NCBI GenBank assembly: GCA_001783215.1 | Contig: MFRA01000005.1 | Location: forward strand, 254,322 to 318,321 | Reading direction: 5' to 3' | Length of the DNA stretch: 64,000 nt | Source of the DNA: Candidatus Magasanikbacteria bacterium RIFOXYD1_FULL_40_23 | Lineage (GTDB): Bacteria > Patescibacteriota > Patescibacteriia > Magasanikbacterales > GWA2-37-8 | Shown: positions 2 to 54,436 of the stretch, piece after piece | Numbering within the stretch: position 1 is the first letter of the stretch | Layout of the letters: each line of letters starts with the position of its first letter | Notes under the pieces: generated by a model | The model's input: only the letters and a program-made list of their open reading frames with translations | Told to the model about the DNA's origin: nothing | Database searches by the model: none | Position numbers and translations under genes: made by a program

Positions 2-3000
2 GTGGCGTTGTCTTCTTGTATGGAAGGTGAAATTCCTTGGATTTTGCGCAAAGAAGACAATTATGAAAAAGCCAAAAAAGTAGCTTTGGAATACCAAGAT
101 ATTTTTGGGGAAGAAAATTTTTATTTGGAATTAATGGATTTGCCGGCGCTAGAAGGTCAGATGGATTTAAACACAAGGCTTATTGAATTATCCAAAGATA
201 CCGGTATACCATTGGTAGTTACGCGTGATGTGCATTATTTGGAGCCAGACGATGCCGAAGCTCAAGATATACTTACATGTATTCGAGATGGACGAACGCT
301 CGACGAAGACAATCGTATTAGTATGAGCGGAGTGGATTATTCTTTTGTGGCGCCCAAAGAAATTATAAATCGTTTTAAACATGTTCCGGAAGCAGTAAGT
401 AATACTGTAAAAATTGCGGAGCGGGTAAACTTAACCATAGAACTAAACAAATGGCATTTTCCTGCTTTGGATATTCCAGATGGCAAGACCGCCGACGATT
501 ATTTACGTGAGCAGGTGTATGAAAAATTACCGCAGCGCATAGAAATGACAGAGGAAGTAAAAAAACGCGCAGATTATGAATTGGGTATTATTGCGACCAA
601 AGGTTATTCGCCATATTTTTTATGCGTGGCCGACTATATTGGTTATGCCAGAGACAATCGTATTATGGTGACCACCCGTGGTTCGGCAGCCGGTTCGGTA
701 GTGTCGTTTGCTATGGGGATTGTGATGGATAATCCGCTTTATTTTAAATTACCATTTGAAAGATTTTTGAATCCTTTTCGCCCTAGTCCGCCAGATATCG
801 ACGGTGACTTTGCCGATGACAAACGCGATGAGATGATTGCCTATGTAACCAAAAAATATGGGGCCGACAAGGTGGCTCAAATTATTACTTTTGGTACGAT
901 GGCGGCGCGCGGAGCTGTGCGAGATGTGGGTCGCGCCCTGGGTTATTCTTATTCTTTTTGTGATCAGGTATCCAAACTTATTCCATTTGGCGCGCAAGGG
1001 TTTCAGATGACGCTGCTAAAAGCGCTAGACTTGGAGCCGGAGTTAAAAAAATTATATCAAAAAAATGCAGAAGTAAAACGATTAATTGATTTGGCGCAAA
1101 AAGTAGAAGGTTGTGCTCGTCATACTTCTATTCATGCGGCCGGTGTTGTTATTTCTCCAACACCGCTTACAGATTTTACACCGGTGCAGCTGGAAACCGG
1201 GGGAGACAAAGTAGTAACTCAATACGAAATGCATTCAGTAGAGGCTGCCGGAGTTTTGAAAATGGATTTTTTGGGTATTCGTAACTTATCTATTTTAGGA
1301 AATGCCATTGAAATTATCGAAAAAACTACAGGTCAAAAAATAAATGTATATAATTTATATCCTTGGAACGATGCAAAGACATATGAGATGTTGGCGCGCG
1401 GAGAAACCGTAGGTGTGTTTCAACTTTCTAGTTCTGGTATGACCAGGTACCTCAAAGAGCTTAAGCCAGCTTCTATTTTTGATATCATGGCGATGGTGGC
1501 CTTATTTCGTCCTGGCCCTATGGACTCTATTCCAGACTATATTCAAAGAAAAAATAATCCAGATTTAATCCAGTACGAAGACCAAAGAATGAAAGAATAC
1601 CTCGATCAGTCACTGGGGCTTATTGTTTACCAAGACGATGTTTTGCTTACTGCTATAAATTTGGCCGGTTATAACTGGGAAGAAGCAGATAAATTCCGTA
1701 AAGCCATGGGTAAGAAAATTCCCGAAGAAATGGCAAAGCAAAAAGAAAAGTTTTATAAAGGAGCCAAGGAATTTGGCAAAGTTCCATCCGAAAAAATCGA
1801 TAGGCTTTGGGAGAGAATTGAACCGTTTGCAGCGTATGGTTTTAATAAAGCCCATGCAGCCAGTTATGCGGTAGTGGCTTATCAAACTGCTTATCTAAAA
1901 GCCAACTTTCCGGTGCAGTATATGACCGCCGTTCTAATTGCAGAAAGTGGCGATATAGATAAAGTGCCGGAAATTATCCATGAATGTGAAAGAATGGGTG
2001 TAAAAGTTTTACCCCCAGATATAAATGAGAGCTTTAAAAACTTTGCCATGATTCCGGCCAAGGATGGCGAACCAGCCTACATCCGTTTTGGTTTAAACGG
2101 CATTAAAAATTTGGGAGAAAATATTGCTGAAGCTATTTATCGTGAGCGTAAAGAAAATGGCAGGTTCAAAGATCTCCAGAGCTTTTTAACTAGAGTAAGT
2201 CATAAAGATTTAAATAAGAAATCTTTAGAAAGCTTAATCAAGTGCGGCGCTTTAGATGGTTTTGATTACGATCGTGGATTTTTGTTTGGTAATATAGAAA
2301 ATATTTTATCTTTTGTTAAGCAGATTCGTGAGCATAGCTCGGTTAGTCAGCATTCTTTGTTTTCGGGCACCAGCATAGATATGTCTTCCAAATTAAAATT
2401 AGAAGAAAAACCAAACGCTACCGAAGCCGAAAAACTTTCTTGGGAAAAAGAGTTGCTTGGATTTTATATTACCTCCCATCCATTTAATGCCTATCAAAAA
2501 ATAATGAGTAGTGTGCTTATTCCTTTAAAAGATTTGTCTGGCCAACCTCGTAATACTTGGGTGGTGGTGGGTGGTATGTTGGATTCTACCAAGAAAAAAA
2601 TTACTCGTAGCGGCAAAGCTATGATGTTTGCCAAACTACTCGACACCACCAGCAGTTTGGAACTGTTGGTGTTTCCAAAAACTTATGAAACCACCAAGGA
2701 TATTTGGGTAGAGGGAAGGCCGGTTTGTGTGATTGGAAGAACTTCGGAAGAAGAAGGCGACGACAAATTATTTGTAGAAAAAGCTTATGTGCTTACTCCG
2801 GAAAATGCGGCCTTGCTTACCAAGCAAATGTCTTTTGGTAAAAGCCATGGTACCAAACCAATGCTCGATGCGCCAGATAAAGAATTCAAAGAAGTATTTG
2901 AAATTACGGTTAGTGCCGATCAAATAAAATCCAAAAGTGATATTATAAAAAGTATATTCGATAAGTTTCCTGGAGAAAAACAGGCCATTATTAAGGTCGG

Positions 3001-3079
3001 ATCAAAAATTATAAAAACTTCTTATAATGTAGACGGTTGTGAAGAGTTAAAAAAAGAACTCGAAGAAGCTCTTGTTTAA
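2..3079 (+). CDS. dnaE: DNA polymerase III alpha subunit, C-terminal 1025 aa; the N-terminus (PHP domain) lies upstream of the window
   Basis: Long ORF open at the window edge. Characteristic PolIIIalpha blocks are present (GYSPYFLCVADYIGYARDNRIMVTTRGSAAGSVVSFAMGI, FNKAHAASYAVVAYQTAYLKANFP) plus a C-terminal OB-like region. Confidence 0.9.
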   Translation: MALSSCMEGEIPWILRKEDNYEKAKKVALEYQDIFGEENFYLELMDLPALEGQMDLNTRLIELSKDTGIPLVVTRDVHYLEPDDAEAQDILTCIRDGRTLDEDNRISMSGVDYSFVAPKEIINRFKHVPEAVSNTVKIAERVNLTIELNKWHFPALDIPDGKTADDYLREQVYEKLPQRIEMTEEVKKRADYELGIIATKGYSPYFLCVADYIGYARDNRIMVTTRGSAAGSVVSFAMGIVMDNPLYFKLPFERFLNPFRPSPPDIDGDFADDKRDEMIAYVTKKYGADKVAQIITFGTMAARGAVRDVGRALGYSYSFCDQVSKLIPFGAQGFQMTLLKALDLEPELKKLYQKNAEVKRLIDLAQKVEGCARHTSIHAAGVVISPTPLTDFTPVQLETGGDKVVTQYEMHSVEAAGVLKMDFLGIRNLSILGNAIEIIEKTTGQKINVYNLYPWNDAKTYEMLARGETVGVFQLSSSGMTRYLKELKPASIFDIMAMVALFRPGPMDSIPDYIQRKNNPDLIQYEDQRMKEYLDQSLGLIVYQDDVLLTAINLAGYNWEEADKFRKAMGKKIPEEMAKQKEKFYKGAKEFGKVPSEKIDRLWERIEPFAAYGFNKAHAASYAVVAYQTAYLKANFPVQYMTAVLIAESGDIDKVPEIIHECERMGVKVLPPDINESFKNFAMIPAKDGEPAYIRFGLNGIKNLGENIAEAIYRERKENGRFKDLQSFLTRVSHKDLNKKSLESLIKCGALDGFDYDRGFLFGNIENILSFVKQIREHSSVSQHSLFSGTSIDMSSKLKLEEKPNATEAEKLSWEKELLGFYITSHPFNAYQKIMSSVLIPLKDLSGQPRNTWVVVGGMLDSTKKKITRSGKAMMFAKLLDTTSSLELLVFPKTYETTKDIWVEGRPVCVIGRTSEEEGDDKLFVEKAYVLTPENAALLTKQMSFGKSHGTKPMLDAPDKEFKEVFEITVSADQIKSKSDIIKSIFDKFPGEKQAIIKVGSKIIKTSYNVDGCEELKKELEEALV

Positions 3080-3086
3080 GAGTAGG

Positions 3087-4187
3087 TTATTTAGCTAGCT
3101 TCCAATTTGGATCGGCTTTTATTTTTTTCCAAGAAGTAAAATCTTTTTGTTTTGCGTGATGGTATCCGGCCACGGCAATCATAGCCCCATTATCCATAGA
3201 GTATTTTAGTTCTGGGAGTTGGAAGCGGGTGTTAGGGAAGTTGGCAGTAATTTCTGATTGTAGAGTTTCGCGCAGTTTTTTGTTGGCGCTTACTCCGCCG
3301 CATAGAATAATTGTTTTTGGTTTGTATTCTGCTGCAGCAGTCATAGTTTTGGCTACCAGCACATCTATAATCGCTTGCTCAAAACTGGCGCAGAAATCAT
3401 TTATATTCAAAGATTCTTTATTGTCACGCAGCCAATAAAGAGCGGAAGTTTTTAGGCCGGAAAAACTAAAATTATAATCTTTGCTGTTAAGCATCGGTCT
3501 AGGGAATTTTATTGCTTCGGTGTTGCCAGTTAGTGCAAGTTTAGAAATTTGCGGTCCGCCAGGGTAGGGTAGTCCGATTAATTTTGCACCTTTATCAAAA
3601 CATTCTCCGGCCGCATCGTCTATGGTAGCGCCAAGCAGTTTGTATTTGCCGTGATCTTTCATAATAATAAGTTCGGTGTGTCCGCCGCTTACCACCAAAC
3701 ATAGAGCTGGAAATTGTAAATCCGTTTTGTCATTCTGAGGCGCAGACGAAGAATCCCTTTTGTCCGACCGAGAGGGATCCTTCACTCTGTTCAGGATGAC
3801 AGTGTCGTAGTTTTTTATTTGGGTAGAATAAATATGTCCTTCTATATGGTTTGTAGAAACCAAAGGCAGGTCTGTTATATAAGACAGTGTGCGGGCAGCT
3901 TCTACACCTACCAATAATCCAGTGATAAGTCCTGGTCCAGAAGTAACAGCTACAGCGTCTGGTTTTGGTTGATTTTCTAACACCGCTTCTATAAGCGGTA
4001 CAATTTTTTCGGCATGCATACGGCCGGCAATTTCTGGAACTACGCCGCCATATTTTTTGTGTACATCAATTTGAGAAGCGGTTTTTTCGGACAAAATAAA
4101 ACAGCCTTTATCGGAGCAGTCTAGCAAGGCTACGGAAGTGTCATCACAAGATGATTCAATACCGAGTATTCGCATATTTATAACCAA
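3087..4187 (-). CDS. tsaD: tRNA N6-adenosine threonylcarbamoyltransferase TsaD (Kae1/Gcp family). Likely true start is the second Met (MRILGIESSCDD, about 4175). Carries an in-frame ~26-aa insertion from a palindromic repeat.
   Basis: MRILGIESSCDDTSVAL, HIEGH, VSGGHTELI and DNGAMIA motifs. Relative to E. coli TsaD (recalled from memory), the HIEGH-to-VSGGH spacing is ~26 aa longer, and that stretch coincides with the repeat at 3728-3801. Confidence 0.88.
   Translation of the reverse strand: MVINMRILGIESSCDDTSVALLDCSDKGCFILSEKTASQIDVHKKYGGVVPEIAGRMHAEKIVPLIEAVLENQPKPDAVAVTSGPGLITGLLVGVEAARTLSYITDLPLVSTNHIEGHIYSTQIKNYDTVILNRVKDPSRSDKRDSSSAPQNDKTDLQFPALCLVVSGGHTELIIMKDHGKYKLLGATIDDAAGECFDKGAKLIGLPYPGGPQISKLALTGNTEAIKFPRPMLNSKDYNFSFSGLKTSALYWLRDNKESLNINDFCASFEQAIIDVLVAKTMTAAAEYKPKTIILCGGVSANKKLRETLQSEITANFPNTRFQLPELKYSMDNGAMIAVAGYHHAKQKDFTSWKKIKADPNWKLAK
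3728..3801. repeat. Family-A palindromic element, copy 1, in frame inside tsaD (encodes ...NRVKDPSRSDKRDSSSAPQNDKTD...)
   Basis: tgtcattctgaggcgcagacgaagaatcccttttgtccgaccgagagggatccttcactctgttcaggatgaca. The ends gtcattctga / tcaggatgac are inverted repeats with a central GGATCC. Matches copies at 14967, 51288, 52651, 59991 and 60612. Confidence 0.85.
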
Positions 4188-4440
4188 GTTTGTCTAGGAT
4201 ATGTGCAAGTTGAATTTTTAATTCAGAGTGTCCCTTACCACCTTTTAGGTATTTTTCTCTTTGTCGAGCATCGTCTTCGTGTAAATATCCTTCGTAATAA
4301 ATTAGACGTATAGGCCTTCTATGTTTAGTTGCTAAAACAAACCCAGATTTATGTTTAAGTATTCTCTTTTTTAAATCGGAAGTAAACCCAATATAAAGTT
4401 TACCATCTTTTTGGCAATACAAAATATATACGTAGTACAT
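4156..4440 (-). CDS. GIY-YIG nuclease family protein (UPF0213-like)
   Basis: YVYILYCQKDGKLYIGFTSDLKKRILKH fits the GIY-YIG pattern Y..Y...DG.LYIG.T.DL.KR...H. 94 aa. Overlaps the annotated tsaD start by ~30 nt. Confidence 0.8.
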   Translation of the reverse strand: MYYVYILYCQKDGKLYIGFTSDLKKRILKHKSGFVLATKHRRPIRLIYYEGYLHEDDARQREKYLKGGKGHSELKIQLAHILDKLGYKYANTRY

Positions 4441-4467
4441 ACCTTTATCCTGGTGTCGCGCGTTAGT

Positions 4468-4505
4468 GGCACGCTTAGCGTGCCTATAACGACGCTAAGC
4501 GTCGT
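4468..4505. repeat. Twin palindromes built on the core ACGCTTAGCGT (ggcACGCTTAGCGTgcc ... acgACGCTAAGCGTcgt)
   Basis: Two perfect palindromes 4 nt apart, immediately 3' of tRNA(CAU) and 28 nt upstream of the GIY-YIG start. The same twin arrangement recurs at 23967-24003. Confidence 0.7.
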
Positions 4506-4578
4506 GTCAAGGGAGAGATTTGAACTCTCGACCTCAGCGTTATGAATGCTGCGCTCTTACCAACTGAGCTACCCTGAC
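4505..4578 (-). tRNA. tRNA with CAU anticodon (Met elongator/initiator, or Ile2 if lysidinylated); CCA not encoded
   Basis: Minus-strand read GTCAGGGTAGCTCAGTTGGTAAGAGCGCAGCATTCATAACGCTGAGGTCGAGAGTTCAAATCTCTCCCTTGACA folds as a cloverleaf: 7-bp acceptor, D arm GCTC/GAGC, anticodon loop TTCATAA, T arm GAGAG/CTCTC with TTCAAAT loop. Confidence 0.8.
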
Positions 4579-4683
4579 TTTTCTGGTGTAAATAATACTA
4601 AAATTACGCTTAAAAGTCAACCCTGTTGCCATCTTATAAATTTATTAGGCCGGCATGTTTTATTCATGACGGCCATTGCTATT

Positions 4684-5157
4684 TTACTCATTTCCATTTT
4701 TATCCGTATCAAATATTTTGTTTCGCCATCTAGAAAGAGTGGTGGGCAGTTTTGTCCCCATCATTACCGACGTAAAGGAGATGCAAAACGACACTAGAAA
4801 ATCAGATTCCCACACTCCCTTTGGTTTACCTAGCATCGGCCAGATTCCTAGTATTTCTATTGGGTAAAATATCACAAGCGTTAGCAGCTGCTTTCTTATC
4901 AGTTCCCACCAATCAAAATTTGGCGTGTCAAAGTGCTTGCCCCATCTTTCGGCCAGGATAGCCAGAGGAGCTATTACCATGCCAGTAATATAGGCACAGT
5001 TGAACGGAAGTTTGGGGATAGATGACCAGTGTATACTGATCATGATTGTGTAGTAAACAGCCAGCGCCATCAAAAGAATGATCGTTCTTACGAGTTTGTT
5101 TTGCATTATTTTTCTCGACTTGCTTGTCCAAATGTATCGTACCCCTATATAATACAT
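4684..5157 (-). CDS. Hypothetical multi-pass membrane protein (possible start at MQNKLV, about 5103)
   Basis: Hydrophobic segments ILLMALAVYYTIMISIHW, ITGMVIAPLAILA, LLTLVIFYPIEILGIW. No recognisable catalytic motif. Confidence 0.4.
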   Translation of the reverse strand: MYYIGVRYIWTSKSRKIMQNKLVRTIILLMALAVYYTIMISIHWSSIPKLPFNCAYITGMVIAPLAILAERWGKHFDTPNFDWWELIRKQLLTLVIFYPIEILGIWPMLGKPKGVWESDFLVSFCISFTSVMMGTKLPTTLSRWRNKIFDTDKNGNE

Positions 5158-5227
5158 AATGTCCAGAATATTATTACCGTTGCCCGATAATAATTAGCTG
5201 GATGAAGTATCGCAGAGGAGTAAGATA

Positions 5228-5860
5228 ATGCGCGTTCTTTTTATCATCGCAGTAGCGATAGCCTCTCTTTGGTTGGGTGGCTGTGGAACAGGTAAGGCAT
5301 ATGTAAATTTGCGTAAGCCAATTTATTTGGTAACGGAGGATAGTTTTTTCACGGGCTGTGAAAAAGACCCTGCTGGTTCGGGTGCGTGTCGGGAGTCTCG
5401 TAGCCAGATAGTAAGGGATGGTGTAATGTTGTGGCTTAATCACTTCGAAAAGGATGTTCGTCCTTTTGTGGGGATTGTGTCCAATAGAGACCTTGTACCA
5501 TTTGGTACAACCAACCAGCCTATCCATATCATGGTGATGCCAGGTGGTTGTGATGAGGTATCAAAGAAGAAGACCATTTTGGCTTGTTATTTTGGCGGAG
5601 ATTGGTTTTCAGAACCGCATATAAATTTTACCAATACTGCTCCAGACCATATTGCTGCCAATGTGGTGGCTCACGAGTTTGGGCATGCGCTATTGGGTTC
5701 GGAGCACTATGACAATGAAGATGGCACTTTGTCTATTATGTCGGAGGCCGTGCCAATTGGCGGCGTCGTGGTTTCTACCGACATAGACCGTCTTTGCTGG
5801 ATTCACAAGGAATGCCCAAAACGCAAGCCTGTGCCTAAGAGTGGTAAAGGTACGAAATGA
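5228..5860 (+). CDS. Lipoprotein with a zinc-metalloprotease-like HExxH motif
   Basis: Signal peptide plus lipobox (IASLWLGGCGTG). VVAHEFGHALLGSEHYD (HExxH...GxxH, metzincin-like spacing). Confidence 0.6.
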   Translation: MRVLFIIAVAIASLWLGGCGTGKAYVNLRKPIYLVTEDSFFTGCEKDPAGSGACRESRSQIVRDGVMLWLNHFEKDVRPFVGIVSNRDLVPFGTTNQPIHIMVMPGGCDEVSKKKTILACYFGGDWFSEPHINFTNTAPDHIAANVVAHEFGHALLGSEHYDNEDGTLSIMSEAVPIGGVVVSTDIDRLCWIHKECPKRKPVPKSGKGTK

Positions 5861-5946
5861 CAGAAATGGAGAATCCCCAAAAATTGTTAGTTGGATTAGT
5901 CCTAGGTATATGTAAATACCAGGACTTTTGTTTTTCGGGTAATTCA

Positions 5947-5975
5947 TTGACTTTTTTCTCTAAATATAGTAGAAT
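5947..5975 (+). promoter_or_regulatory. Candidate sigma-70-type promoter for tRNA-Glu (-35 TTGACT, 17-bp spacer, -10 TAGAAT)
   Basis: TTGACT at 5947-5952 and TAGAAT at 5970-5975, with the tRNA 5' end at 5991. Confidence 0.4.
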
Positions 5976-5990
5976 ATTTTCACAATTAAT

Positions 5991-6062
5991 GGTCTCATCG
6001 TCTAATGGTTAGGACATTGCCCTTTCAAGGCGAAAATACGGGTTCAATTCCCGTTGGGACTA
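5991..6062 (+). tRNA. tRNA-Glu (anticodon UUC)
   Basis: GGTCTCA TC GTCT AATGGTT AGGAC A TTGCC CTTTCAA GGCGA AAAT ACGGG TTCAATT CCCGT TGGGACT A. Canonical cloverleaf similar to bacterial tRNA-Glu, with anticodon TTC at 6024-6026. Confidence 0.85.
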
Positions 6063-6069
6063 CAAATAA

Positions 6070-6098
6070 AAACAGGCACTTTGGTGTCTGTTTTTATT
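6070..6098 (+). terminator. Rho-independent terminator after tRNA-Glu
   Basis: acaggcac-tttg-gtgtctgt hairpin followed by tttttatttg. Confidence 0.5.
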
Positions 6099-6099
6099 T

Positions 6100-6233
6100 G
6101 TTATGGGCATCAACGGGAATTGAAGGGAAAGGGTGAAAACGGGAGTTTTCACTTTGCCGAGGAAAGTTCATGAAAACCCGAAGGTTTTTATGAGAGCCCG
6201 CTTGCGGGCGATCAATGCCCTAGTTGGGACTAC
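6100..6233 (+). other. Structured non-coding tract containing an inverted copy of the tRNA-Glu T-arm and a degenerate direct copy of the tRNA 3' end (att-scar-like). Possibly a small ncRNA.
   Basis: 6107-6122 caacgggaattgaag is the reverse complement of the tRNA T-arm gttcaattcccgttg. 6214-6233 gatcaatgccctagttgggactac resembles the tRNA 3' end ggttcaattcccgttgggactac. Several hairpins are present: gtgaaaac-ggga-gttttcac, gaaaacc-cgaa-ggttttt, gcccgc-ttgc-gggc. Confidence 0.3.
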
Positions 6234-6273
6234 TTAACAAAACACCATCACTAATATGATGGTGTTTTCGTGT
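6229..6273. repeat. Direct repeat DR-1 (terminator-like hairpin) at the left edge of the RSD cassette
   Basis: actacttaacaaaacaccatcactaatatgatggtgttttcgtg; about 90% identical to 8869-8914. Confidence 0.7.
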
Positions 6274-6481
6274 AAGGTTACAGGCGTAATTGAGTTTGCC
6301 ACTTCACTTTTTTCTTTTTTAAGACTATTTTAGATTTTTGTTCGTTTCTTCTCTTTGTTGACAGGCAAATAACGGTTTGATTCCGGCTGGACTCTGGTCA
6401 TAAAAATAAGTATATTACTTGCAGATACTTTGTGATTAAGATAGTATAAAGTCCAAAGTATCAAATTTAAGATTAAATGGT

Positions 6482-7387
6482 ATGGGTGAAATTTATACAC
6501 AAACATTAAAATATTTCTACATTGCGATTATTAGATTTTTGCCGCTTTTGAAAACGCTCGAAGTATCTGTGTTAGAGAAAAATGATAAAGCAGAAGTATC
6601 AGATCTTATTGAAATGTATTCAGACATAGAAGTACAGATCGACAAACTTGGTTTGAGTTTTCGTGAACCAAATAAGCGACACCTTGGGGAGCCAGTTGAA
6701 GTAAAAAACTGGTTGGATGAAGGTGTAATAGAAAATTTAAGCAGACTATCTATTCGTCTTTTAATTTCATGGAAAGAAGAGTTAAAAAATTTGCAAGAAA
6801 AAAAATATCTTACTGATGGAAACAAAGAAAGAATTAGTTATTTGGAAGACCGTATCTGGCCACTTGAGGCTTTATCCAAAGACCCTAATTACGTTATTGG
6901 TAAGTATGCTGATAAAGGACCCTTGGAATTTCCCGGTGAAAATAAGGTAAAAAAATCTAGTCCAGAAGTCATAGTTGAAGATGGAAAAGGGATTATTTTT
7001 TCCAAGGACCTAACATCTAAAATATCTGCCGATTTAGGAGGGCTGTGTAATGAGTTTAATTTTAATTATCAAAATAAAAAACCAAATGCAGGATTGCTTC
7101 TATTAAGGCGAATTTTACCCTTGGCCATTGTGCGTAAATTTCAAGCTCTGAATAGAGAGCTTGAAATTAAAAAGCCAGATGGTGATTTTTTAGACACAAA
7201 AGGTTTACTCGGACAAGTTGAAAAGTTACTTAGCAACAAGCGAATTTATAAAGAAATTGAGGGGTATAAGTTATTGATTGATAGTTCTCAGCATTCTTAC
7301 TCTCTAAATGTGGACGATTCGGATGTAGAGGGTGCCGCTATCAAGATTAGAGTTCTGTTGGATGATTTATTTTACAACCATAAGTGA
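6482..7387 (+). CDS. Hypothetical protein (301 aa), 5' partner of the RSD gene. No recognisable domain.
   Basis: The ORF ends in TGA at 7385-7387, overlapping the annotated GTG start at 7384 and 5 nt before ATG 7393. No HD/SpoT-hydrolase or Nudix motif. Confidence 0.55.
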   Translation: MGEIYTQTLKYFYIAIIRFLPLLKTLEVSVLEKNDKAEVSDLIEMYSDIEVQIDKLGLSFREPNKRHLGEPVEVKNWLDEGVIENLSRLSIRLLISWKEELKNLQEKKYLTDGNKERISYLEDRIWPLEALSKDPNYVIGKYADKGPLEFPGENKVKKSSPEVIVEDGKGIIFSKDLTSKISADLGGLCNEFNFNYQNKKPNAGLLLLRRILPLAIVRKFQALNRELEIKKPDGDFLDTKGLLGQVEKLLSNKRIYKEIEGYKLLIDSSQHSYSLNVDDSDVEGAAIKIRVLLDDLFYNHK

Positions 7388-8823
7388 TTGTTATGCTAAA
7401 CGCTGATCAAGTTAAAAAGGACTATCAAAATTTAAAGCCATTTTATGAAAAATTTCAGACGGAAGTCTGTGGTTTTCTTTTAACTGTTAAAGAAAAACAC
7501 GCTGCTTCAGTTGACGTATCTTCCATTTTGGAAAGGCAGGATGGGATAAAGAAGCTTGAATCAATTGAGGATAATATACGAGAAAAGCCAGAAAAATATC
7601 AGGATTTAAATGAATTGTCCCAAATTAATGATGTGGCGGGCGTTCGCATTACCTGCCATTGTCAAAGTGATCGCGAGGTTCTTTTTAATATATTGGGTGG
7701 TGAGATTTTGCAGCAGCAGGAATATATTGATGTGGATGGTCAGGAGAAGGACGGCATTTATCGAGCCTATCACTATAATTTTAGTAAGATTTTTGATACT
7801 CCTATAGGCAGAAAAAAGCTTTCGTGTGAAGTGCAGCTCAGGACCGTGTTGGGCGATGCTTGGGCAAAGCAAGATACAAAGTATGTATATAAAAAGATTA
7901 GTGAAGGTGAGCCGCATGTTCTGTCTAAGGCAATTTCTGATATTTTAAACAGCTGTGAGGCATTGTGGGATTTGGTAAAGGAAAAAACTAGAACAGATTC
8001 TGGTGATTCTAAAAGACCGCAAGCTGAAATTATTAAATTGAGTGAAAAAATTAAGATGGTTGGAGATCAGATAAAAATAAAAGAAAAAGATAGTAATTTA
8101 ACGGAATGGCTTAAACATCATCAGTTAGTAGCTAAAAAGGGTTTAACCGACGCTGAGGTTATTACTTTTATGGAGGTAGAAATACTATTGCCGTTAAGTG
8201 AGCTAAACTTGGCTAAAACAAAGCTCAATGATGTGGCTAGAGAAGCACCTATACGTACTTTTGGTTGGCCGATAGCGCTCTATTTGGAAAGGGATGAGTA
8301 CAGACCGAAGGTTTTAAAGGACGGTATTGTGGCTGAAATAAAAACAAATGATCGTGATCTTAACGGGAAACATAGGGCATGGACTTATGACTACTGGACA
8401 ATACGTACAGATGGATCCTTTTATCTAGCTAAAAGCCTTTTTGAAAATACAAGGAAACCAACACACATATTTTTTGATACGCGAATTATTCGTACTACAG
8501 AAGTATTAATGTATGCTTTAAATCTTTATTCTGCTCTTGGTGTTCCGGAAGATCAGAGGCTTACCGTAAAAATACGGTATAGTGGTATCAATGGTAAAAA
8601 ATTAGGTGCCGCTGGTAACAGGCTGATTCATGATTATCGTATTTGTCATGAAAATGATATTGAAATGGAGATAACAGCAAGTATGAAAGAACTAAGTGAA
8701 GAAATGAGTGTTTGCGTTGGAAAGCTAACAGCACCACTATTTGAGCTCTTTGATTTTTTTGCCGTTAGTCAAGAAGTTTTATATGGGATAGTTAATAATT
8801 ACCGAAAGGGGATTATTACCTAG
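7384..8823 (+). CDS. RelA/SpoT-synthetase-domain (RSD) nucleotidyltransferase with a ~280-aa C-terminal extension of unknown function; toxSAS/CapRel-like candidate. True start may be ATG 7393.
   Basis: Motifs match (p)ppGpp-synthetase-fold signatures: RQDGIKKLESIEDNIREKPEKY (GRxKxxxSIxxKxxRK-like), INDVAGVRITC (DxxGxRII), YRAYHY (YRSLH-like), EVQLRTVLGDAWAKQDTKYVYK (ELQIRTxxMHxWAExxHDxxYK). Confidence 0.8.
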   Translation: MIVMLNADQVKKDYQNLKPFYEKFQTEVCGFLLTVKEKHAASVDVSSILERQDGIKKLESIEDNIREKPEKYQDLNELSQINDVAGVRITCHCQSDREVLFNILGGEILQQQEYIDVDGQEKDGIYRAYHYNFSKIFDTPIGRKKLSCEVQLRTVLGDAWAKQDTKYVYKKISEGEPHVLSKAISDILNSCEALWDLVKEKTRTDSGDSKRPQAEIIKLSEKIKMVGDQIKIKEKDSNLTEWLKHHQLVAKKGLTDAEVITFMEVEILLPLSELNLAKTKLNDVAREAPIRTFGWPIALYLERDEYRPKVLKDGIVAEIKTNDRDLNGKHRAWTYDYWTIRTDGSFYLAKSLFENTRKPTHIFFDTRIIRTTEVLMYALNLYSALGVPEDQRLTVKIRYSGINGKKLGAAGNRLIHDYRICHENDIEMEITASMKELSEEMSVCVGKLTAPLFELFDFFAVSQEVLYGIVNNYRKGIIT

Positions 8824-8868
8824 GTTATTCAGCGGAGGTTAAAAAAGTTTGCCAAGTGTCTTGATCAA

Positions 8869-8914
8869 CACTACTTAACAAAAAACACCTTCACTAAAAT
8901 GATGGTGTTTTTGT
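8869..8914. repeat. Direct repeat DR-2 (terminator-like hairpin) at the right edge of the RSD cassette
   Basis: actacttaacaaaaaacaccttcactaaaatgatggtgtttttgtt; about 90% identical to DR-1 with a 2-nt indel. Confidence 0.7.
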
Positions 8915-8932
8915 TATTAATGAATTAAATTT

Positions 8933-9439
8933 CTAACGTCCTAATTTTGGCGCTGACATTTTGACCTTATACTTCATACCCATAAAGTTGCCTGTAAAAT
9001 GCTGTTTTCCAAACAGCGTTACATATTGTTGAGGGATATTATTGTCTTTTGTCCATTGCTTTAAATCCTCAGTTGTTTTTTTCATGGCAGCTGCTCTGTC
9101 GGTAGGGGTCATGTCTTTCAAGTCGACTAAACTTGTTTGTATCTCCTTGGTTTTACTGGTAATTAGATCTGCCTGGGCTTGGGTCAATTTTCCGTTTTTG
9201 ACCGCTTCAGCCAAGATGTCGGCCGTTCTTTTTTGGTGCTGCAGAGTGACTGTTTCGTTTATCACACTTTGCACATCCACCTGGTTTAGATTGAATTTTG
9301 CAGCAATGGCAGTAGAAATTTCGTTAAATTGATTATATTTTACTGGGTTAGTACTAGCCGCATAGGTGGTGCCTGCTGCCAGCAAGCCTACTACCGTAAG
9401 AGTAGATAAGGAAGCATATATAAGATTTTTCTTTTTCAT
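8933..9439 (-). CDS. Secreted hypothetical protein (signal peptide)
   Basis: MKKKNLIYASLSTLTVVGLLAAGTTYAAS signal peptide. 168 aa, Lys/Thr-rich. Confidence 0.5.
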   Translation of the reverse strand: MKKKNLIYASLSTLTVVGLLAAGTTYAASTNPVKYNQFNEISTAIAAKFNLNQVDVQSVINETVTLQHQKRTADILAEAVKNGKLTQAQADLITSKTKEIQTSLVDLKDMTPTDRAAAMKKTTEDLKQWTKDNNIPQQYVTLFGKQHFTGNFMGMKYKVKMSAPKLGR

Positions 9440-9592
9440 AACAATATAATATTAAGTTGGTGAATTATTTTTTTCGACCTTTTATACGCTGCGTATAATA
9501 ATACGTTCCACTGATTTAAAATGGTGCATCAGAAAAATTATATTTTTTACATATTTGTATTTTTTTGTTTTTTACAGTAGAGTGAAAATTAT

Positions 9593-10174
9593 ATGAATAC
9601 AGATTTGGATGAAAAATTAGTAGCCCTATATTTAGCTGGAGACGAAACCGCTCTGCAAAGTTTGGTGCGTAAACACACAACCGGTGTTTATAATTTTGTG
9701 GCGCAACTAGTAGGGTATGGCCAAAATGCGGAGGATGTCTCTCAGGAAGCCTTTATTAAAGCTTGGAAAAGTTTAAAAAAGTTTGATTTGGATAAGAAAT
9801 TTAAACCTTGGCTATATCGTATTGCTAGAAATTCGGCAATTGATTTTTTGCGCCAGCGCAAAGCTACAGTTCCTTTGGTAAACACATATGATGATGAAGA
9901 AGTAAACGAAGCGGATTATGTGGTAGATCCGGAGCCACTTCCATTGGAGCAGGCCATATCATCGGAAACAAAAGAGGCTATTCAAAAGTTGGTTAATTCC
10001 TTGCCATCAATTTATAGTACGGTATTAAAATTATATTATTTGGAAGAATTTTCTTTGCCAGAAATAGCCGAAATTTTGAATGAATCTATAGATACTGTAA
10101 AAAGTAAGCATCGTCGTGCTTTGATAAAACTGCGAGAATTAGTCTCGGAAGACCGTAACTTAGCCAAAAACTAG
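9593..10174 (+). CDS. RNA polymerase sigma-70 factor, ECF subfamily
   Basis: Region 2 (EDVSQEAFIKAWKSLKKFD...FKPWLYRIARNSAIDFLR) and region 4 (LPSIYSTVLKLYYLEEFSLPEIAEILNESIDTVKSKHRRALIKLRE). Confidence 0.85.
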   Translation: MNTDLDEKLVALYLAGDETALQSLVRKHTTGVYNFVAQLVGYGQNAEDVSQEAFIKAWKSLKKFDLDKKFKPWLYRIARNSAIDFLRQRKATVPLVNTYDDEEVNEADYVVDPEPLPLEQAISSETKEAIQKLVNSLPSIYSTVLKLYYLEEFSLPEIAEILNESIDTVKSKHRRALIKLRELVSEDRNLAKN

Positions 10175-10216
10175 CCTTTGCACCATAATTATTAATTATT
10201 ACGTAATATATAGCGT

Positions 10217-14940: not shown

Positions 14941-14966
14941 ACAAACTATTTATTAATTAATTTAAC

Positions 14967-15040
14967 TGTCATTCTGAGCAAGGCGAAGAATCTCTTTCGT
15001 TTGGATGTAAAGGGATCCTTCATTACATTCAGGATGACAA
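14967..15040. repeat. Family-A palindromic element, copy 2 (intergenic)
   Basis: tgtcattctgagcaaggcgaagaatctctttcgtttggatgtaaagggatccttcattacattcaggatgacaa. Confidence 0.85.
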
Positions 15041-22984: not shown

Positions 22985-23002
22985 TTTGTTATATAATTTA
23001 AT

Positions 23003-23085
23003 TATATAGGGGCTAAAGCCACATATATGCTCATTCACTCAGAAATAAATAAGTTTACTTATTTATTTCTTCATTCATTTCGCAT
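23003..23085 (+). repeat. Family-C leader module, copy 1, ending at the start codon of the 23086 gene
   Basis: tatataggggctaaagccacatatatgctcattcactca + palindrome gaaataaataag-ttt-acttatttatttc + ttcattcatttcgcat + ATG. Confidence 0.75.
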
Positions 23086-23496
23086 ATGAAAGAATTTTTT
23101 GTTAGCTTATTTGTAATTATATTTGTAGCAGCGGTAGTTGTGTTTGGAGTTTTTCCTCCGAAGGTTTATGTTACATTTATTTCTGCGCAGAATAGTGTCT
23201 TGGCTGCAGAGCAAAAACAAATTACAGATGCTTTGCTTTGGCAATATAGTTATAATCCTTTGCGAGTAGGGCGAGAGTACCAGATAAATATGCCTAGCCC
23301 CGCACCCTTGAAAAATCCGGCAAAACAAGATTACCAATATTTTATTTGGGCAAGTGTAAAATCCCTATCTTTTGTAAAAGAATCAGAAGCAGGGGATAAT
23401 ACTTGGAATTTGGTTTTGGCAAAAGATAAAAATGGCAACTGGAAAATTGTAGCTGACAAGCTTTGTTGCGGGCAAGGGGTTGATGAATGGTATTAA
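23086..23496 (+). CDS. Hypothetical membrane-anchored protein
   Basis: N-terminal TM FFVSLFVIIFVAAVVVFGVF. 136 aa. Confidence 0.5.
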   Translation: MKEFFVSLFVIIFVAAVVVFGVFPPKVYVTFISAQNSVLAAEQKQITDALLWQYSYNPLRVGREYQINMPSPAPLKNPAKQDYQYFIWASVKSLSFVKESEAGDNTWNLVLAKDKNGNWKIVADKLCCGQGVDEWY

Positions 23497-23966: not shown

Positions 23967-24003
23967 CCAACGCTTAGCGTTGGTATGGGGACGCTAAGCG
24001 TCC
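23967..24003. repeat. Twin ACGCTTAGCGT-core palindromes, second locus (ccaACGCTTAGCGTtgg ... ggACGCTAAGCGTcc)
   Basis: Same architecture as 4468-4505, with flanking nucleotides changed in a way that keeps complementarity. Lies between the rny stop and the hup start. Confidence 0.7.
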
Positions 24004-24010: not shown

Positions 24011-25543
24011 TTACTTAGCGTATTCTACTACGCGAGTTTCGCGAATAATAGTAACACGGATTTCACCAGGGTATTGAAGTTCTTGTTCAATTTTGCGAGA
24101 GATATCTTTGGCCAATTGGAAAGCAGAATAATCGTCTACTTCATTTGGTTTTACAAACACGCGTACTTCGCGACCAGCTTGGATTGCATATACTTTATCA
24201 ATTCCAGGGAAGCTCTTGGCGGTTTTTTCTAATTCTTCCAAACGAGCCACGAATTGTTCATAGCTGTCTTTGCGAGCGCCAACTCTGGCGCCAGAGATGG
24301 CGTCGGCAGCTTTGGCAATAGAAGAATAGATATTGTAAGGTTTGTCTTGGTGGTGAGTAAGAGCTGCTTGGCAGATATCTTCGTCCATGTTGAACTTTTT
24401 CAAGATCATATGGCCAATCTCTGGGTGAGAGCCTTGAGTCTCTTGGTCCACAGCTTTACCAATATCGTGGAAGAAGCCACATTTTTTGGCCTTAGCTGCA
24501 TCAAGTCCTAGTTCGCTAGCAATCATACCGGCCAAGTAGCCAGTCTCCATAGAGTGGAGAATAATATTTTGTCCGTAGCTAGTGCGGTATTTTAATCTAC
24601 CAACAATACTTACTAATTTTGGATCAATGCCGGTAATGCCCATTTTATAAAGGGCTTCCTCACCAGCTTTTTTGATATCCACTGCCAAATCTTGTTTGGC
24701 TTTTTCTACAAACTCTTCGATGCGAGCTGGTTGAATGCGGCCATCAGCCATTAATTTTTCTAGCGCCAGCTTGGCAATTTGTCGGCGGATAGGGGAGAAT
24801 CCAGATACTACGATAGCGTCTGGGGTGTCGTCGATAATAAGTTCACAACCAGTTAGCTTTTCAATTGTTTTAATGTTGCGTCCTTCTTTACCGATAATGC
24901 GGCCCTTCATGTCTTCGCTAGTTAGCTGTACGGTGGTGGAAGTGATTTCGGCAGCATGAGAAGAAGCACAGCGCTGTACTGCGTCGGCAATAAGTTCGCG
25001 AGCTTTTTCTTCGTAAACTTCTATTGATTCTTTGTCTAGTTTCAAAACTCTAGCCATCAAATCGGCTTTGCTTTGTTGTTCAATTCTTTTTAGAAGCTCT
25101 TCTTTGGCCTCTTCTTTTTTCATTGTTGCAATCTGTTGCAATTTTTCTACCTCTTGCTCCTTCATTTGTTCTATCTCTGTTTTTATATGTTGGATCTGGT
25201 CTGCTTTTTCTTGTAGTTTTTGTTTGCTACCTTCTAGTTCAATCAATTTTTGATCAAACAAAGCCTCGCGTCTTTCTAGTCTTTCTTGGGCATTGTGAAG
25301 ATCTTGGCGAACGGTTTTTTCTTCACGCTTAGCTTCGTCTACTATTTGAGTAGCTTTTTCTTTGCCCTGTAGGATTATTTCTTGTTGTTTTGTTTTTGCT
25401 TCAACAAGAAGACTCTCTGCTTTGGCTTCGATAGAGTTGGCTTGGGCTTGAGCCAATTTTTTCCTTAAGAAGTATCCAACGCTTGTGCCGAGTCCGGCGC
25501 CAGCTACTACCAGGATTGCCCAGATAAAGTTTGACATATACAA
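24011..25543 (-). CDS. rny: Ribonuclease Y
   Basis: N-terminal TM, long coiled-coil, KH domain (GRIIGKEGRNIKTIE), HD domain (HSMETGYLAGMIASELG...FFHDIGKA). Confidence 0.9.
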   Translation of the reverse strand: MYMSNFIWAILVVAGAGLGTSVGYFLRKKLAQAQANSIEAKAESLLVEAKTKQQEIILQGKEKATQIVDEAKREEKTVRQDLHNAQERLERREALFDQKLIELEGSKQKLQEKADQIQHIKTEIEQMKEQEVEKLQQIATMKKEEAKEELLKRIEQQSKADLMARVLKLDKESIEVYEEKARELIADAVQRCASSHAAEITSTTVQLTSEDMKGRIIGKEGRNIKTIEKLTGCELIIDDTPDAIVVSGFSPIRRQIAKLALEKLMADGRIQPARIEEFVEKAKQDLAVDIKKAGEEALYKMGITGIDPKLVSIVGRLKYRTSYGQNIILHSMETGYLAGMIASELGLDAAKAKKCGFFHDIGKAVDQETQGSHPEIGHMILKKFNMDEDICQAALTHHQDKPYNIYSSIAKAADAISGARVGARKDSYEQFVARLEELEKTAKSFPGIDKVYAIQAGREVRVFVKPNEVDDYSAFQLAKDISRKIEQELQYPGEIRVTIIRETRVVEYAK

Positions 25544-26070: not shown

Positions 26071-26740
26071 ATGATTTGAAATTATCTAAATTAATAGCAT
26101 TTTTTAGTAAGTATTTGCCAATTTTTGTACGCATTAATTCTTGGCAATAAGCGCCAGTTTCTAACTTTGCGCCTATATCGTGAGCCAATGTGCGAATGTA
26201 GGTTCCTGCCGAACATTGTACTTCAATTTTTAAAATAGGCCAAGAGTATTCTAAAAGCTTAATTTTATAAATTTCTATTTCGTTTGCTTTTCTTTCTACA
26301 GTTATTCCTTTTCTAGCCAACTGGTATAGTCTTTGTCCGTCTACCCATTTGGCAGAAAACATTGGCGGAGTTTGTAGTTGTTTGCCAATAAAAGTTTTAA
26401 GTAGGCTTTTTATTTGTTTTTTGTCTGGTTGAATCATGCTGTGTGTATCATGCATCGTGATCTGTCCGGTTTTATCATCAGTATCACTTGTGGCTCCAAG
26501 TTTAATAGTAGCAATATACGTTTTGGGCATGTTTTTAAACCCGTCCAGTTTTTTGGTAGCTTCTCGGCCAACACCTACGATAAGCAGTCCGGTGGCAAAC
26601 GGATCCAGAGTGCCGGCATGACCAACCTTTACCCTTTTTTGTTTGTCGGGTAGGGGGGTCTTTTTAACACGGTTGCGTACAAAAGCTACAACATCAAAAC
26701 TGCTCCAGCCTTCGGGTTTGTTAATTAATAGGTAGTTCAT
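26051..26740 (-). CDS. truB: tRNA pseudouridine(55) synthase TruB
   Basis: INKPEGWSSFDVVAFVR...KVGHAGTLDPFATGLLIVGVGREATK, with the catalytic Asp in GTLDP. Confidence 0.9.
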   Translation of the reverse strand: MNYLLINKPEGWSSFDVVAFVRNRVKKTPLPDKQKRVKVGHAGTLDPFATGLLIVGVGREATKKLDGFKNMPKTYIATIKLGATSDTDDKTGQITMHDTHSMIQPDKKQIKSLLKTFIGKQLQTPPMFSAKWVDGQRLYQLARKGITVERKANEIEIYKIKLLEYSWPILKIEVQCSAGTYIRTLAHDIGAKLETGAYCQELMRTKIGKYLLKNAINLDNFKSYDEQSR

Positions 26741-26826
26741 AAACGAAATGAGTGAGCAAAGTAATAAGCCTGCTTAATTACTTTCGAGCGAATGAGTATA
26801 TATGCAGCTTTAGCCCATATATAGTA
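26741..26826 (-). repeat. Family-C leader module, copy 2, ending at the truB start codon (minus-strand orientation)
   Basis: Minus-strand read tatatgggctaaagctgcatatatactcattcgctc + palindrome gaaagtaattaagc-agg-cttattactttg + ctcactcatttcgttt + ATG(truB). Confidence 0.75.
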
Positions 26827-26873
26827 TTTGTGTTATTATGCAAGAGTTTAAGGAAAAGGACAAGAAGCCTAAA

Positions 26874-43189: not shown

Positions 43190-43416
43190 TATAGGGGCTA
43201 AAGCCCGCGGCGCGCTCACTCATTTCGATTATATGGGCTAAAGCCACATATATACTCATTCGCTCATAAATAATTTCATTAGAAAATAATTGAGCAAGCT
43301 CATTATTTTCTCACTCATTATTTAACTCACTCACTTCGTATATATAGTTAAACATATATTTTCACTCACTCGGAAATAAATAAGCAAGCTCATTTATTTC
43401 CTCATTCATTTCAAAT
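43190..43416 (+). repeat. Family-C leader module, copy 3 (tandem, with an extra truncated head), ending at the start codon of the 43417 response regulator
   Basis: ataggggctaaagcc-cgcggcgcg-ctcactcatttcg, then tatatgggctaaagccacatatatactcattcgctca ... palindrome ggaaataaat-aagcaagctc-atttatttcc + tcattcatttcaaat + ATG. Numerous TCACTCA/TCATTCA reiterations. Confidence 0.75.
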
Positions 43417-43788
43417 ATGAAAAAAATTCTTATAGTAGAGGACGAATTGGCGTTATTGTATGCTTTAGCATCTCAGTTTGATAAAAAAGAATTTAAAGTT
43501 CTTCAGGCTGTGGATGGCGAAGAAGGCTTAAAAACTGCCCTAAAGTCACATCCGGATTTAATTTTATTGGACTTGCTTATGCCGAAAATGGATGGCATGT
43601 CTATGTTAAAAGAATTGCGCAAGGATTCTTGGGGTAAGGGTGTAAAAGTAATAATTTTAACCAACCTAAGTGATGCAGAAAAAATTGATGAAGCGTTAAA
43701 GCAGGGGACATATGATTATTTAGTAAAAAAAGATTGGAACATTTCCGAAGTAATTGAAAAAGTGAAAGCTAGTCTGGGTATGAAATAG
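43417..43788 (+). CDS. Single-domain response regulator (CheY-like receiver)
   Basis: KILIVEDE...LLDLLMPKMDGMSMLKELR...KVIILTNL...YDYLVKK. Confidence 0.85.
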   Translation: MKKILIVEDELALLYALASQFDKKEFKVLQAVDGEEGLKTALKSHPDLILLDLLMPKMDGMSMLKELRKDSWGKGVKVIILTNLSDAEKIDEALKQGTYDYLVKKDWNISEVIEKVKASLGMK

Positions 43789-47395: not shown

Positions 47396-47510
47396 CATAA
47401 ATAGCCTAGGATGGTATTATTAGAGCATAAGAAGAGCTTCCATATAGGAACGCTCTTTTTTGTTAGCCATTTTTGTGCTAATATAATAACTAATTATAAT
47501 TTAATATACT

Positions 47511-48737: not shown

Positions 48738-48830
48738 TCGGGCTTCAATGGACGCGCCGGCCGCGTTTCAAAGGACGTGACGCGGCATGATTACGTCGAA
48801 TCAATTTCGTTAAATCAAATCTTAAATTTT
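48738..48830. repeat. Family-B hairpin repeat, copy c (nusA-yidC intergenic; partially reiterated)
   Basis: gggcttcaatggacgcgcc + ggccgcgtttcaaaggacgtgacgcggcatgattacgtcgaatcaa + tttcgttaaatcaaatc. Confidence 0.65.
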
Positions 48831-52263: not shown

Positions 52264-52298
52264 CACCAACGCACTCTTCTTGTAAAATGACCTCACTC

Positions 52299-52325
52299 TT
52301 ATCACTCTATTATTTTGAGTGATAA
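52299..52325 (+). promoter_or_regulatory. CIRCE-like inverted repeat (HrcA operator variant) upstream of groES
   Basis: TTATCACTC-tattatttt-GAGTGATAA, versus canonical CIRCE TTAGCACTC-N9-GAGTGCTAA. 33 nt upstream of the groES ATG. Confidence 0.6.
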
Positions 52326-52357
52326 CATAATTATTAATAAATTCTAATTTTATTTGT

Positions 52358-52642: not shown

Positions 52643-52650
52643 ATTTAAAC

Positions 52651-52747: not shown

Positions 52748-52780
52748 TACGTTGCATAATTCTTAATTCGTAATTCATAA

Positions 52781-54436
<1,656 letters not shown>

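Follow-up and report, generated by a model that had tools for sequence, protein, structure and literature searches.

A hairpin-forming module abutting start codons in Candidatus Magasanikbacteria, possibly a propagating 5' leader

In this work, we ask why the same stretch of DNA stands directly before three unrelated genes in a 64-kb region of Candidatus Magasanikbacteria bacterium RIFOXYD1_FULL_40_23 (contig MFRA01000005.1, positions 254,322 to 318,321), hereafter called the window. A hairpin-forming module of about 85 bases was found at 23005-23088 (+) before a gene for a 136-aa protein, at 26738-26823 (-) before truB, and at 43190-43419 (+) before a response-regulator gene, where it forms 2.5 tandem units. 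Both the presence of one module at all three genes and its reiteration at the third had been noted in a preliminary description of the sequence. At each site the parts follow in the order hairpin P1, box1, a palindrome of about 28 nt (P2), box2, four bases and ATG, and the window consensus is TATAkGGGC-TAAA-GCyrCATATA for P1, CTCATTCrCTC for box1 and yTCAyTCATTTC for box2. These motifs lie far above chance, with 9 matches to YTCAYTCRYTY against 1.28 expected (none of 100 shuffles reached 9) and 4 matches to ATATAWWCTCATTCRCTC, at up to three mismatches, against 0.47 expected. The copies are alike, with 81% identity over 80 nt in one pair (D3) and 89% over 46 nt in another (I1), and the motif scans of the 64-kb window gave no module copies beyond the three sites. 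The module is a real, previously undescribed and lineage-wide element of Ca. Magasanikbacteria and related Patescibacteria. We hypothesize, with a probability of roughly one half, that it is a propagating, structured and co-transcribed 5' leader that docks at start codons, rather than a fixed promoter.

The docking at start codons was observed far beyond the window. The genome scan, with one genome per species and the P1 sequence as the query, gave about 21 true modules, all of which end in ...CATTTCGNAT-ATG, and their hosts were Magasanikbacteria and metagenome-assembled genomes (MAGs) of relatives titled Gammaproteobacteria. The metagenome scan was anchored on box1 and box2 only, so that P1, P2 and the ATG were left free, and it gave more than 114 loci, mostly from groundwater. 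The 103 modules with a P2 hairpin among the metagenome matches listed are the basis of the family-wide counts below. With the ATG unconstrained, and against a background ATG frequency of 1.5% per position, a start codon with an open reading frame (ORF) stood exactly 4 nt past CATTTC in 70 of the 103 modules (68%). A start codon was found at a distance of 5-80 nt in 8 modules and at the 4-nt offset but with an ORF of less than 25 aa in 2, the next feature was another module in 4, and a same-strand ORF was absent within 80 nt in 19. The spacing of 3-6 nt first given for box2 is replaced by a fixed one (CATTTC-NNNN-ATG). The idea of a common leader cassette that has a set orientation and adjoins the start codons of unrelated genes was upheld. 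The downstream products are unrelated housekeeping proteins, and they include NusG, IF-2, RecA, LigA, NrdJ, Der, GAPDH, PGK, RlmI and a beta-CASP RNase as well as, assigned by eye, uS9, uL11, bL19, bS6, uS17, uL18, bL36, SecE, SSB, DnaN, UvrA and Def.

No curated covariance model in Rfam matches the module (best 23.5 bits, gathering score 70), and the literature search did not find the box sequences in any paper. A phage origin was rejected, the only viral contig of IMG/VR that matched the box pattern not being a module. RNA genes downstream of the copies without ATG were also ruled out, as neither a tRNA nor an Rfam match was found there. At locus L137 the module lies on the strand opposite a 23S rRNA gene (2724-9891), which is split by group I introns, and the stretch of about 180 nt that comes after the module is structured, non-coding and without an Rfam match. 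MAGs titled "uncultured Gammaproteobacteria" carry the module at L004, L009, L012, L013, L016, L019, L025, L027 and L148 (CAZUFD01), and the same label stands on the module-bearing loci of CAZQLV01, CAZBWU01, CAYIJG01 and CAYIHE01. In CAZUFD01, TruB is 85% identical to that of the window and the infB/truB/rny synteny is kept, and these MAGs look like mislabelled Magasanikbacteria.

The core of the module is a single long hairpin, in which a basal helix (P3) is followed by a 10 x 12 nt internal loop and then by P2. The loop consists of two conserved CU-rich strands and is roughly two-fold symmetric, with box1 CTCATTCRCTC opposite box2 CTCAYTCATTTC. P2 is free in both sequence and length, with 93 distinct sequences in 103 copies, and its mean folding energy is -8.0 kcal/mol, compared with -1.35 ± 1.56 for shuffles. 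In the arm-swap test, the two arms of a module form 9.32 of 10 Watson-Crick pairs, compared with 6.68 when the arms come from different modules, and between the uL11 orthologues L049 and L081 a compensatory double change from T-A to G-C is seen in the hairpin stem. That the palindrome changes while its pairing is kept, as first proposed, is thus borne out.

The helix P3, which the preliminary description had missed, joins the bases 5' of box1 to those before and including the ATG. It has 7 bp, in which segment beta (ATATAxy and the first C of box1) pairs with segment gamma (G-y'x'-TAT-G), the AUG included. Watson-Crick pairing is found at -1:+14 in 87 of 102 copies (permuted 41.2 ± 4.3, maximum 55) and at -2:+15 in 96 of 102 (permuted 53.6 ± 4.2, maximum 68). 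The copies use no fewer than 10 different complementary combinations of dinucleotides, and the pairing is also kept in lineages without the ATG or with other types of P1. The formal covariation count was made on a gapless alignment of 72 distinct modules, in which 86.7% of cells are paired, compared with 69.2 ± 0.9% in shuffles and 42-53% in slid controls. The covariation score was 0.470, whereas shuffles gave 0.167 ± 0.011, with none of 500 reaching that score, and slid controls no more than 0.137; double changes were seen in 5 of the 7 P3 pairs and 7 of the 8 P2 pairs. A plain MAFFT alignment put the arms out of register, so that RNAalifold returned no structure from it, and the arm-swap and fixed-register tests were used instead.

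The conserved block first described as box A is present, but it is not a plain box, being itself the hairpin P1. This hairpin is lineage-specific, with loops of 3-4 nt and a stem of variable length, and the stems covary between contigs, so that GGGC/GCCC, AGC/GCT, ACC/GGT, C/G, CGC/GCG and CCACGAC/GTCGTGG all occur. Since the sequence and the stem length of P1 vary while the pairing holds, an operator with fixed spacing is ruled out. P1 and P3 are mutually exclusive because beta belongs to both, as the 3' arm of P1 and the 5' strand of P3. Covariation with beta is weak for those bases of the P1 5' arm that lie on the flank side (26 vs. 15.4 ± 3) and strong for the gamma bases inside the element. 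The folding models point weakly to a possible switch between P1 and P3.

The paired stems also bear on a reading at the level of DNA, in which box1 and box2 would be direct repeats, spaced by four helical turns (about 40 bp), to which a global regulator binds, for example of the response-regulator type, and the palindromes would be spacers or cruciforms. The boxes are indeed similar, have the same orientation and lie about 40 nt apart in the common form, and between beta and the beginning of P2 conservation is unbroken over a long stretch. However, the spacing ranges from about 33 to more than 75 nt as P2 varies in length, which would break the helical phasing, and the covariation of P2 and P3 shows selection for intramolecular pairing. 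The downstream genes have no common theme either, and we consider such a binding site very improbable. Three operators of differing specificity, an option raised in the preliminary description, are not supported, as the 93 distinct forms of P2 and its variable stem length fit structure and not sequence-specific operators.

All four complete units of the window (copies 1 and 2, and units b and c of copy 3) have P3. Copy 1, on the plus strand, has P1 TATAGGGGC / TAAA / GCCACATATA at 23005-23027 with beta as its 3' arm, and the 5' strand of P3 (beta TATATGC, 23024-23030), which is -10-like, is paired with 23082-23088 in the RNAfold minimum free energy structure. Box1 CTCATTCACTC at 23030-23040 provides the 5' strand of the internal loop and box2 TTCATTCATTTC at 23070-23081 its 3' strand. 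Between them, P2 (GAAATAAATAAG / TTTA / CTTATTTATTTC, 23042-23069) has 12 perfect pairs (z -7.1 for 23037-23088), and gamma (GCAT-ATG, 23082-23088) holds the start codon of the 136-aa gene, its ATG being at 23086. The minimum free energy structure of this copy consists of P3 and P2 (-20.1 kcal/mol, z -5.6).

Copy 2, on the minus strand, has P1 TATATATGGGC / TAAA / GCTGCATATATA at 26797-26823, with one G.T pair and a bulged G, and box1 CTCATTCGCTC at 26786-26796. Its P2 (26757-26785) is interrupted by a bulge of 1 nt and has a terminal mismatch, and its fold is not more stable than that of shuffled sequences (z -1.0). Box2 CTCACTCATTTC (26756-26745) and gamma GTTT-ATG complete the copy (26738-26756), and the truB start codon is at 26740-26738. 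Copy 3, on the plus strand, begins with the truncated unit a (43190-43229), composed of the 5' half of P1, a GC-rich filler and a box2-like CTCACTCATTTCG, and continues with two full units. Unit b (43230-43344, z -6.1) has P1 at 43230-43252, box1 at 43255-43265, a partly degenerate P2 of 60 nt at 43266-43325, box2 at 43326-43337 and gamma at 43338-43344; its last three bases are ATA where the other units have ATG, and it shares homology with the module at locus L013. Unit c (43339-43419) has a P1 of the second type (TATATATAG / TTAAA / CATATAT, 43339-43360), box1' at 43361-43371, P2 at 43372-43401, box2 at 43401-43412 and gamma at 43413-43419, with the ATG of the response regulator at 43417 and the C1:G pair of P3 changed to T:A. 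The perfect dyad symmetry once ascribed to every copy is therefore found only in copy 1, and it fails at truB and at the response regulator, where there is an A.C mismatch.

The history of the module can be followed at orthologous loci. The truB gene has no module in four syntenic relatives (TruB identity 85, 79, 75 and 72%), in which infB is divergent and is followed by truB, a small ORF and rny. L148-L150 keep the native truB promoter TTGTCC-17-CATAAT and a short leader, and L151 has an unrelated stretch of about 600 nt upstream of truB instead; in the window the same promoter-like site lies upstream of the module at 26835-26863 (-). The infB gene, on the other hand, has the module in L150, L151, L055 and L071 and lacks it in the window, L148 and L149. 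In L150 the native TATAAT and a leader of about 22 nt are kept, and the module stands between this leader and the ATG, whereas infB sites empty of the module begin with GTG. The two orthologues of the 136-aa gene (74 and 59% identical) also have no module, and the coding sequence runs on identically from ATGAAAGAATTTTTTGTTAGC. Recent copying is seen in L004 and L025, which belong to one MAG and have modules 98% identical over 86 nt before unrelated genes, and in sister genomes orthologous genes bear differing P2 variants. Given this presence and absence at the three loci and the near-identical copies at unrelated genes, the module is gained, lost and exchanged as a unit, 0-2 nt from the start codon. 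The native leaders at sites without the module are too diverged to place the junction, and both module ends are (TA)n. The suggestion that the module coordinates its genes found no support; nothing shows co-regulation, and gain and loss between close relatives fits a propagating element.

The stop codon of a same-strand upstream gene often adjoins P1 or falls within it, so the module exactly fills gaps between stop and start codons. In some loci an independent module recurs every 1.2-2.5 kb, a pair of modules stands back-to-back at the divergent genes of one locus, and whole modules also form head-to-tail tandem arrays with one (TA)n junction in common.

The window TruB (229 aa) is identical to that of Candidatus Magasanikbacteria bacterium RIFOXYD2_FULL, and four other assemblies of the window organism showed no strain-level difference, being identical across the truB module. 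Several TruB homologues (P0007, P0011, P0019, P0028, P0031 and others) are annotated as 20-60 residues longer than the window TruB, which may reflect gene callers extending the starts upstream. Upstream of the orthologues of the 136-aa gene (L152, 290-420; L153, 725-850) there is a conserved non-coding stretch of about 100 nt with a terminator-like hairpin, which may be a small RNA. The gene content of the window also includes a pilin of a type IV secretion system typical of the candidate phyla radiation (CPR), ComEC, RNase Y (24011-25543) and IF-2.

Does the module bring its own promoter? A TATATA-like -10 had been pointed out in box A, and the resemblance stands, as the unconstrained positions -6 to -1 read T98 A93 T98 A86 W W (of 101 copies) and TAnnnT occurs in register -4..+2 in 86 of 101. 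Its role as a promoter is another matter, because these bases also make up the 5' strand of P3, covary there and pair with T-AUG; this explains the conservation of beta without a promoter and implies that beta is present on the folded strand. Neither a -35 element nor an extended -10 (TGn) was found in the module in the 101 copies, and the promoter listings show no site inside modules. A self-contained expression cassette, a sharper version of what the preliminary description proposed, would use the 3' arm of P1 as a sigma-70 -10 without -35 (TATAWT or TAnnCT), with the start at the purine of box1 (position 8, G80/A21, preceded by C); P2 would then be a 5'-terminal stabiliser, box2 a landing site for ribosomes without a Shine-Dalgarno (SD) sequence, and P1 would insulate from or terminate upstream transcription. 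The frequent beginning of the module right at the stop codon of the upstream gene suits this reading, and the module fits the operational definition of putative mobile promoters (PMC3488235). In the L034/L084 lineage, and only there, an element upstream of box1 resembles a canonical terminator with a U-tract. However, the last base of the hexamer is T in only 54% of the copies (in the simple register), and at truB and infB the module is inserted downstream of conserved native sigma-70 promoters, which are kept. The closely spaced divergent cases, which had appeared to require an internal promoter, are modules without a downstream gene. We therefore regard the cassette as rather doubtful.

Ordinary sigma-70 promoters are present in this genome (infB, TTGACT-17-TATAAT; groES, TTGACA-17-TGtAAAAT), so the host does not need the module as a type of promoter. 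Two related candidates were rejected: a promoter just upstream of P1, where -10-like hexamers have no positional peak, and P1 as an intrinsic terminator, as the Magasanikbacteria form has no U-tract and the terminator scan lists none. The module evidently sits in many transcriptional contexts. The lack of an SD sequence at the three genes, also noted in the preliminary description, is true but not specific to them, since it is genome-wide; almost all genes lack an SD sequence and have an AT-rich context (upstream 40 nt of 53 window ORFs), and very many of these ORFs have T at position -1, directly before the start codon. In several window genes a TATAAT-like box precedes the ATG by about 7-12 nt, which is compatible with leaderless or very short-leader mRNAs. 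The 144 collected sequences (0.96 Mb) examined for complementarity to the boxes contain no 16S rRNA gene.

We hypothesize that a small non-coding element docks 0-2 nt from a start codon and would then be co-transcribed as a 5' leader or an intercistronic spacer, from whichever promoter lies upstream. In this way the native leader would be swapped for a standard initiation region that is pyrimidine-rich and has no SD sequence. The hairpins of the module may protect or punctuate mRNA ends, and a putative factor, a protein or the ribosome, would read both boxes. P1, which in most lineages re-uses the 5' strand of P3, would hold the AUG out of P3.

Several observations weigh against such a co-transcribed leader. 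The 19 copies with no same-strand ORF within 80 nt are odd for a pure leader; a few of them are antisense between two genes (L051, L058, L136), and one is followed by about 180 nt of non-coding sequence. Beta reads TATAWW or TAnnCT with a conserved purine 7-8 nt later, so a promoter with a -10 only stays conceivable. The stems are near-perfect and their sense and antisense folding energies are equal, and the wobble counts depend on the method (4 G.T vs. 15 A.C, and 18 vs. 15 in the fixed-register recount), the sole systematic wobble in the module being a U.G pair that involves the last base of the AUG. It could therefore be in DNA that the pairing is constrained, with no clear wobble-based signature of RNA. 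The predicted accessibility of the AUG is 0.32 with the P1 5' arm and 0.23 without it, which is a modest change. As to the means of propagation, the module has no terminal inverted repeats, and tblastn with an IS200 TnpA query over about 0.96 Mb of module-bearing fragments found no mobilising enzyme.

A part of this evidence would suit a selfish non-autonomous hairpin transposon of the IS200/IS605, PATE or REP type, which follows a single-strand DNA logic. P1 and P2 would be subterminal hairpins, the beta:gamma pairing would be the recognition of guide and cleavage site, and the boxes would bind a recombinase; the abutment of start codons would come from a preference for T-ATG or TA-rich targets together with purifying selection, and any effect on expression would be incidental. 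Two hairpins without terminal inverted repeats, stems that are near-perfect palindromes as DNA and equally stable in sense and antisense, the presence/absence polymorphism with clean boundaries, the near-identical copies before unrelated genes and the head-to-tail arrays with a common (TA)n junction are all in its favour. Copies that run the "wrong" way or have no gene downstream, and the covariation with beta that is weak in the flank bases of the P1 5' arm and strong in gamma, point in the same direction. On the other side, no Y1/HUH transposase was detected in the fragments (best E 0.96), a weak negative, and the left flank has no conserved target tetranucleotide, only AT-richness upstream of P1. 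P2 differs from copy to copy and is thus not a common hairpin sequence for a protein to recognise. Moreover, the exact docking of 68% of the copies with strict co-orientation to the gene is hard to understand without function, and the boxes are conserved across divergent lineages. A purely selfish transposon is thus unlikely in our view.

A more speculative combination is a mobile leader that seeks start codons, in which beta, the complement of T-ATG and two variable bases, would guide integration at translation starts, and P3, the CU-rich loop and P2 would then serve as an SD-independent platform for the ribosome or a factor, similar to an internal ribosome entry site. This seems improbable, and it would mean that a selfish element became the standard translation-initiation module of many core genes in a lineage that has abandoned the SD sequence.

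Among the known systems, putative mobile promoters are sequences of 50-100 nt with at least 80% identity that stand before non-homologous genes, within a genome and across genera (Matus-Garcia, Nijveen, van Passel 2012; PMC3488235; PMC3575422). The module has this length and upstream identity, both in the window copies and in L004/L025. In contrast to that operational class, which has no defined structure, it has a three-helix architecture and lies exactly against the start codon, and any promoter activity is doubtful from the sequence. The Correia repeat-enclosed elements (CREE/NEMIS) of Neisseria and other MITEs (miniature transposable elements with inverted repeats) are short, abundant intergenic repeats with a long hairpin that are co-transcribed with their neighbours, may create promoters at TA-rich ends or alter mRNA processing and stability, and are polymorphic in presence between strains (PMC2649163, PMC10969869, PMC2229807). 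CREE have 26-bp terminal inverted repeats, a TA duplication, an IHF site and a variable distance to genes (PMC2649163). The presence and absence of the module at the orthologous truB, infB and 136-aa loci is of the same kind. However, the module ends, GGGCTAAAGCC... and ...CTCACTCATTTCG, are unrelated apart from the 7-nt subterminal beta/gamma complement, 68% of the copies are at the fixed 4-nt offset, and the inner stem is free in sequence.

The pneumococcal BOX elements, described by Martin and colleagues in 1992, are reportedly modular intergenic repeats with variable tandem units that do not abut start codons. The mycobacterial MIRUs of Supply and colleagues (1997), like BOX modular repeats in variable tandem numbers that take the orientation of their flanking genes, are said to fill the stop-to-start gaps of operons and to have been first seen between histidine kinase and response regulator genes. 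MIRUs reportedly have no dyad symmetry, and their translation into mini-ORFs that couple neighbouring genes has been proposed. The tandem units of our module likewise fill stop-to-start gaps in the orientation of the gene, and copy 3 of the window also stands at a junction of histidine kinase and response regulator. The module has no sequence similarity to BOX or MIRUs. Unlike MIRUs it has dyad symmetry, unlike BOX it abuts start codons, and its A/T-rich palindromes contain many stop codons. The ends of IS200/IS605 (Barabas and colleagues, 2008) and the PATE and REP/RAYT elements (Nunvar and colleagues, 2010) reportedly have no terminal inverted repeats, hairpins near their ends and a short guide pairing. 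The subterminal P1 and P2 are similar to these hairpins and beta:gamma formally resembles the pair of guide and cleavage site, but the module has no conserved left-flank target or hairpin sequence and its orientation follows the gene and not replication.

Structured 5' leaders are known to stabilise processed mRNAs, as in the 5' hairpin of E. coli ompA and in B. subtilis cggR-gapA, which is processed by RNase Y. The module similarly has a hairpin a few nt past a single-stranded purine and then an unstructured initiation region, and RNase Y is encoded in the window. By analogy, the purine and the hairpin could define a protected 5' end. In contrast to ompA and cggR-gapA, which are features of single genes, the module is portable and re-used at dozens of genes per genome.

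Four further likenesses were considered. A CRISPR- or TIGR-like array, suggested by a short box with a variable part of about 28 nt at a period of about 40 nt, does not apply, as the variable parts are palindromes common to several genomes, only 1-3 units occur, these adjoin the ATG, and cas or tas genes are missing from the neighbourhood. An integron attC site is excluded by the lack of core sites, by the housekeeping genes and by the fact that the polymorphic part is the module and not the gene. A promoter for a single-subunit RNA polymerase of the T7 or N4 type, suggested by a likeness to CTCACT and to hairpin promoters, has no supporting polymerase, and box2 repeats the motif without the AT-rich upstream part. 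The likeness to a NusB/E boxA antitermination site is only loose (CUC..UUU).

The start of transcription and translation in Patescibacteria (CPR) is barely known, and the module is a concrete and testable cis-module before core genes. It is an unusually clean portable leader, with exact docking, three covarying helices and two invariant boxes predicted to be single-stranded, and future genetic work on these organisms could take it as a candidate expression part. The module also shows a rapid turnover of regulatory DNA even in tiny genomes, and it may account for broken contigs and for overlong gene calls in Magasanikbacteria MAGs.

The window holds other repeats as well. A second family, GTCATyCTGAry...GAAGrATCC, is intergenic, often in inverted pairs and unrelated to the module (3726-3802, 14942-15039, 51287-51317, about 52643-52746, 59991-60087 and 60613-60640). 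A 45-nt repeat, GCCGCGTTTCAAwGrACGTkACGCGGCATGATTmCGTyGAATCAA, with a GC-rich hairpin inside, occurs at 45623-45667 and 48760-48804 (89% identical), with a weak third copy at 43824-43868. Near-identical terminator-like palindromes were found at 6239-6271 and 8882-8914 (AAAACACCwTCACTAAwATGATGGTGTTTT) and at 4471-4502 and 23970-24001 (ACGCTTAGCGT...ACGCTAAGCGT). An AT-rich leader motif, CATAATTmTTAAT..., lies about 30 nt before the ATG of several genes, including groES and groEL (10184-10211, 47482-47509, 52326-52353 and 52755-52782). At groES (52260-52325), the promoter TTGACA-17-TGtAAAAT is followed by a CIRCE-like inverted repeat, TTATCACTC-N9-GAGTGATAA, and this putative operator implies a heat-shock control of the HrcA type in this CPR genome.

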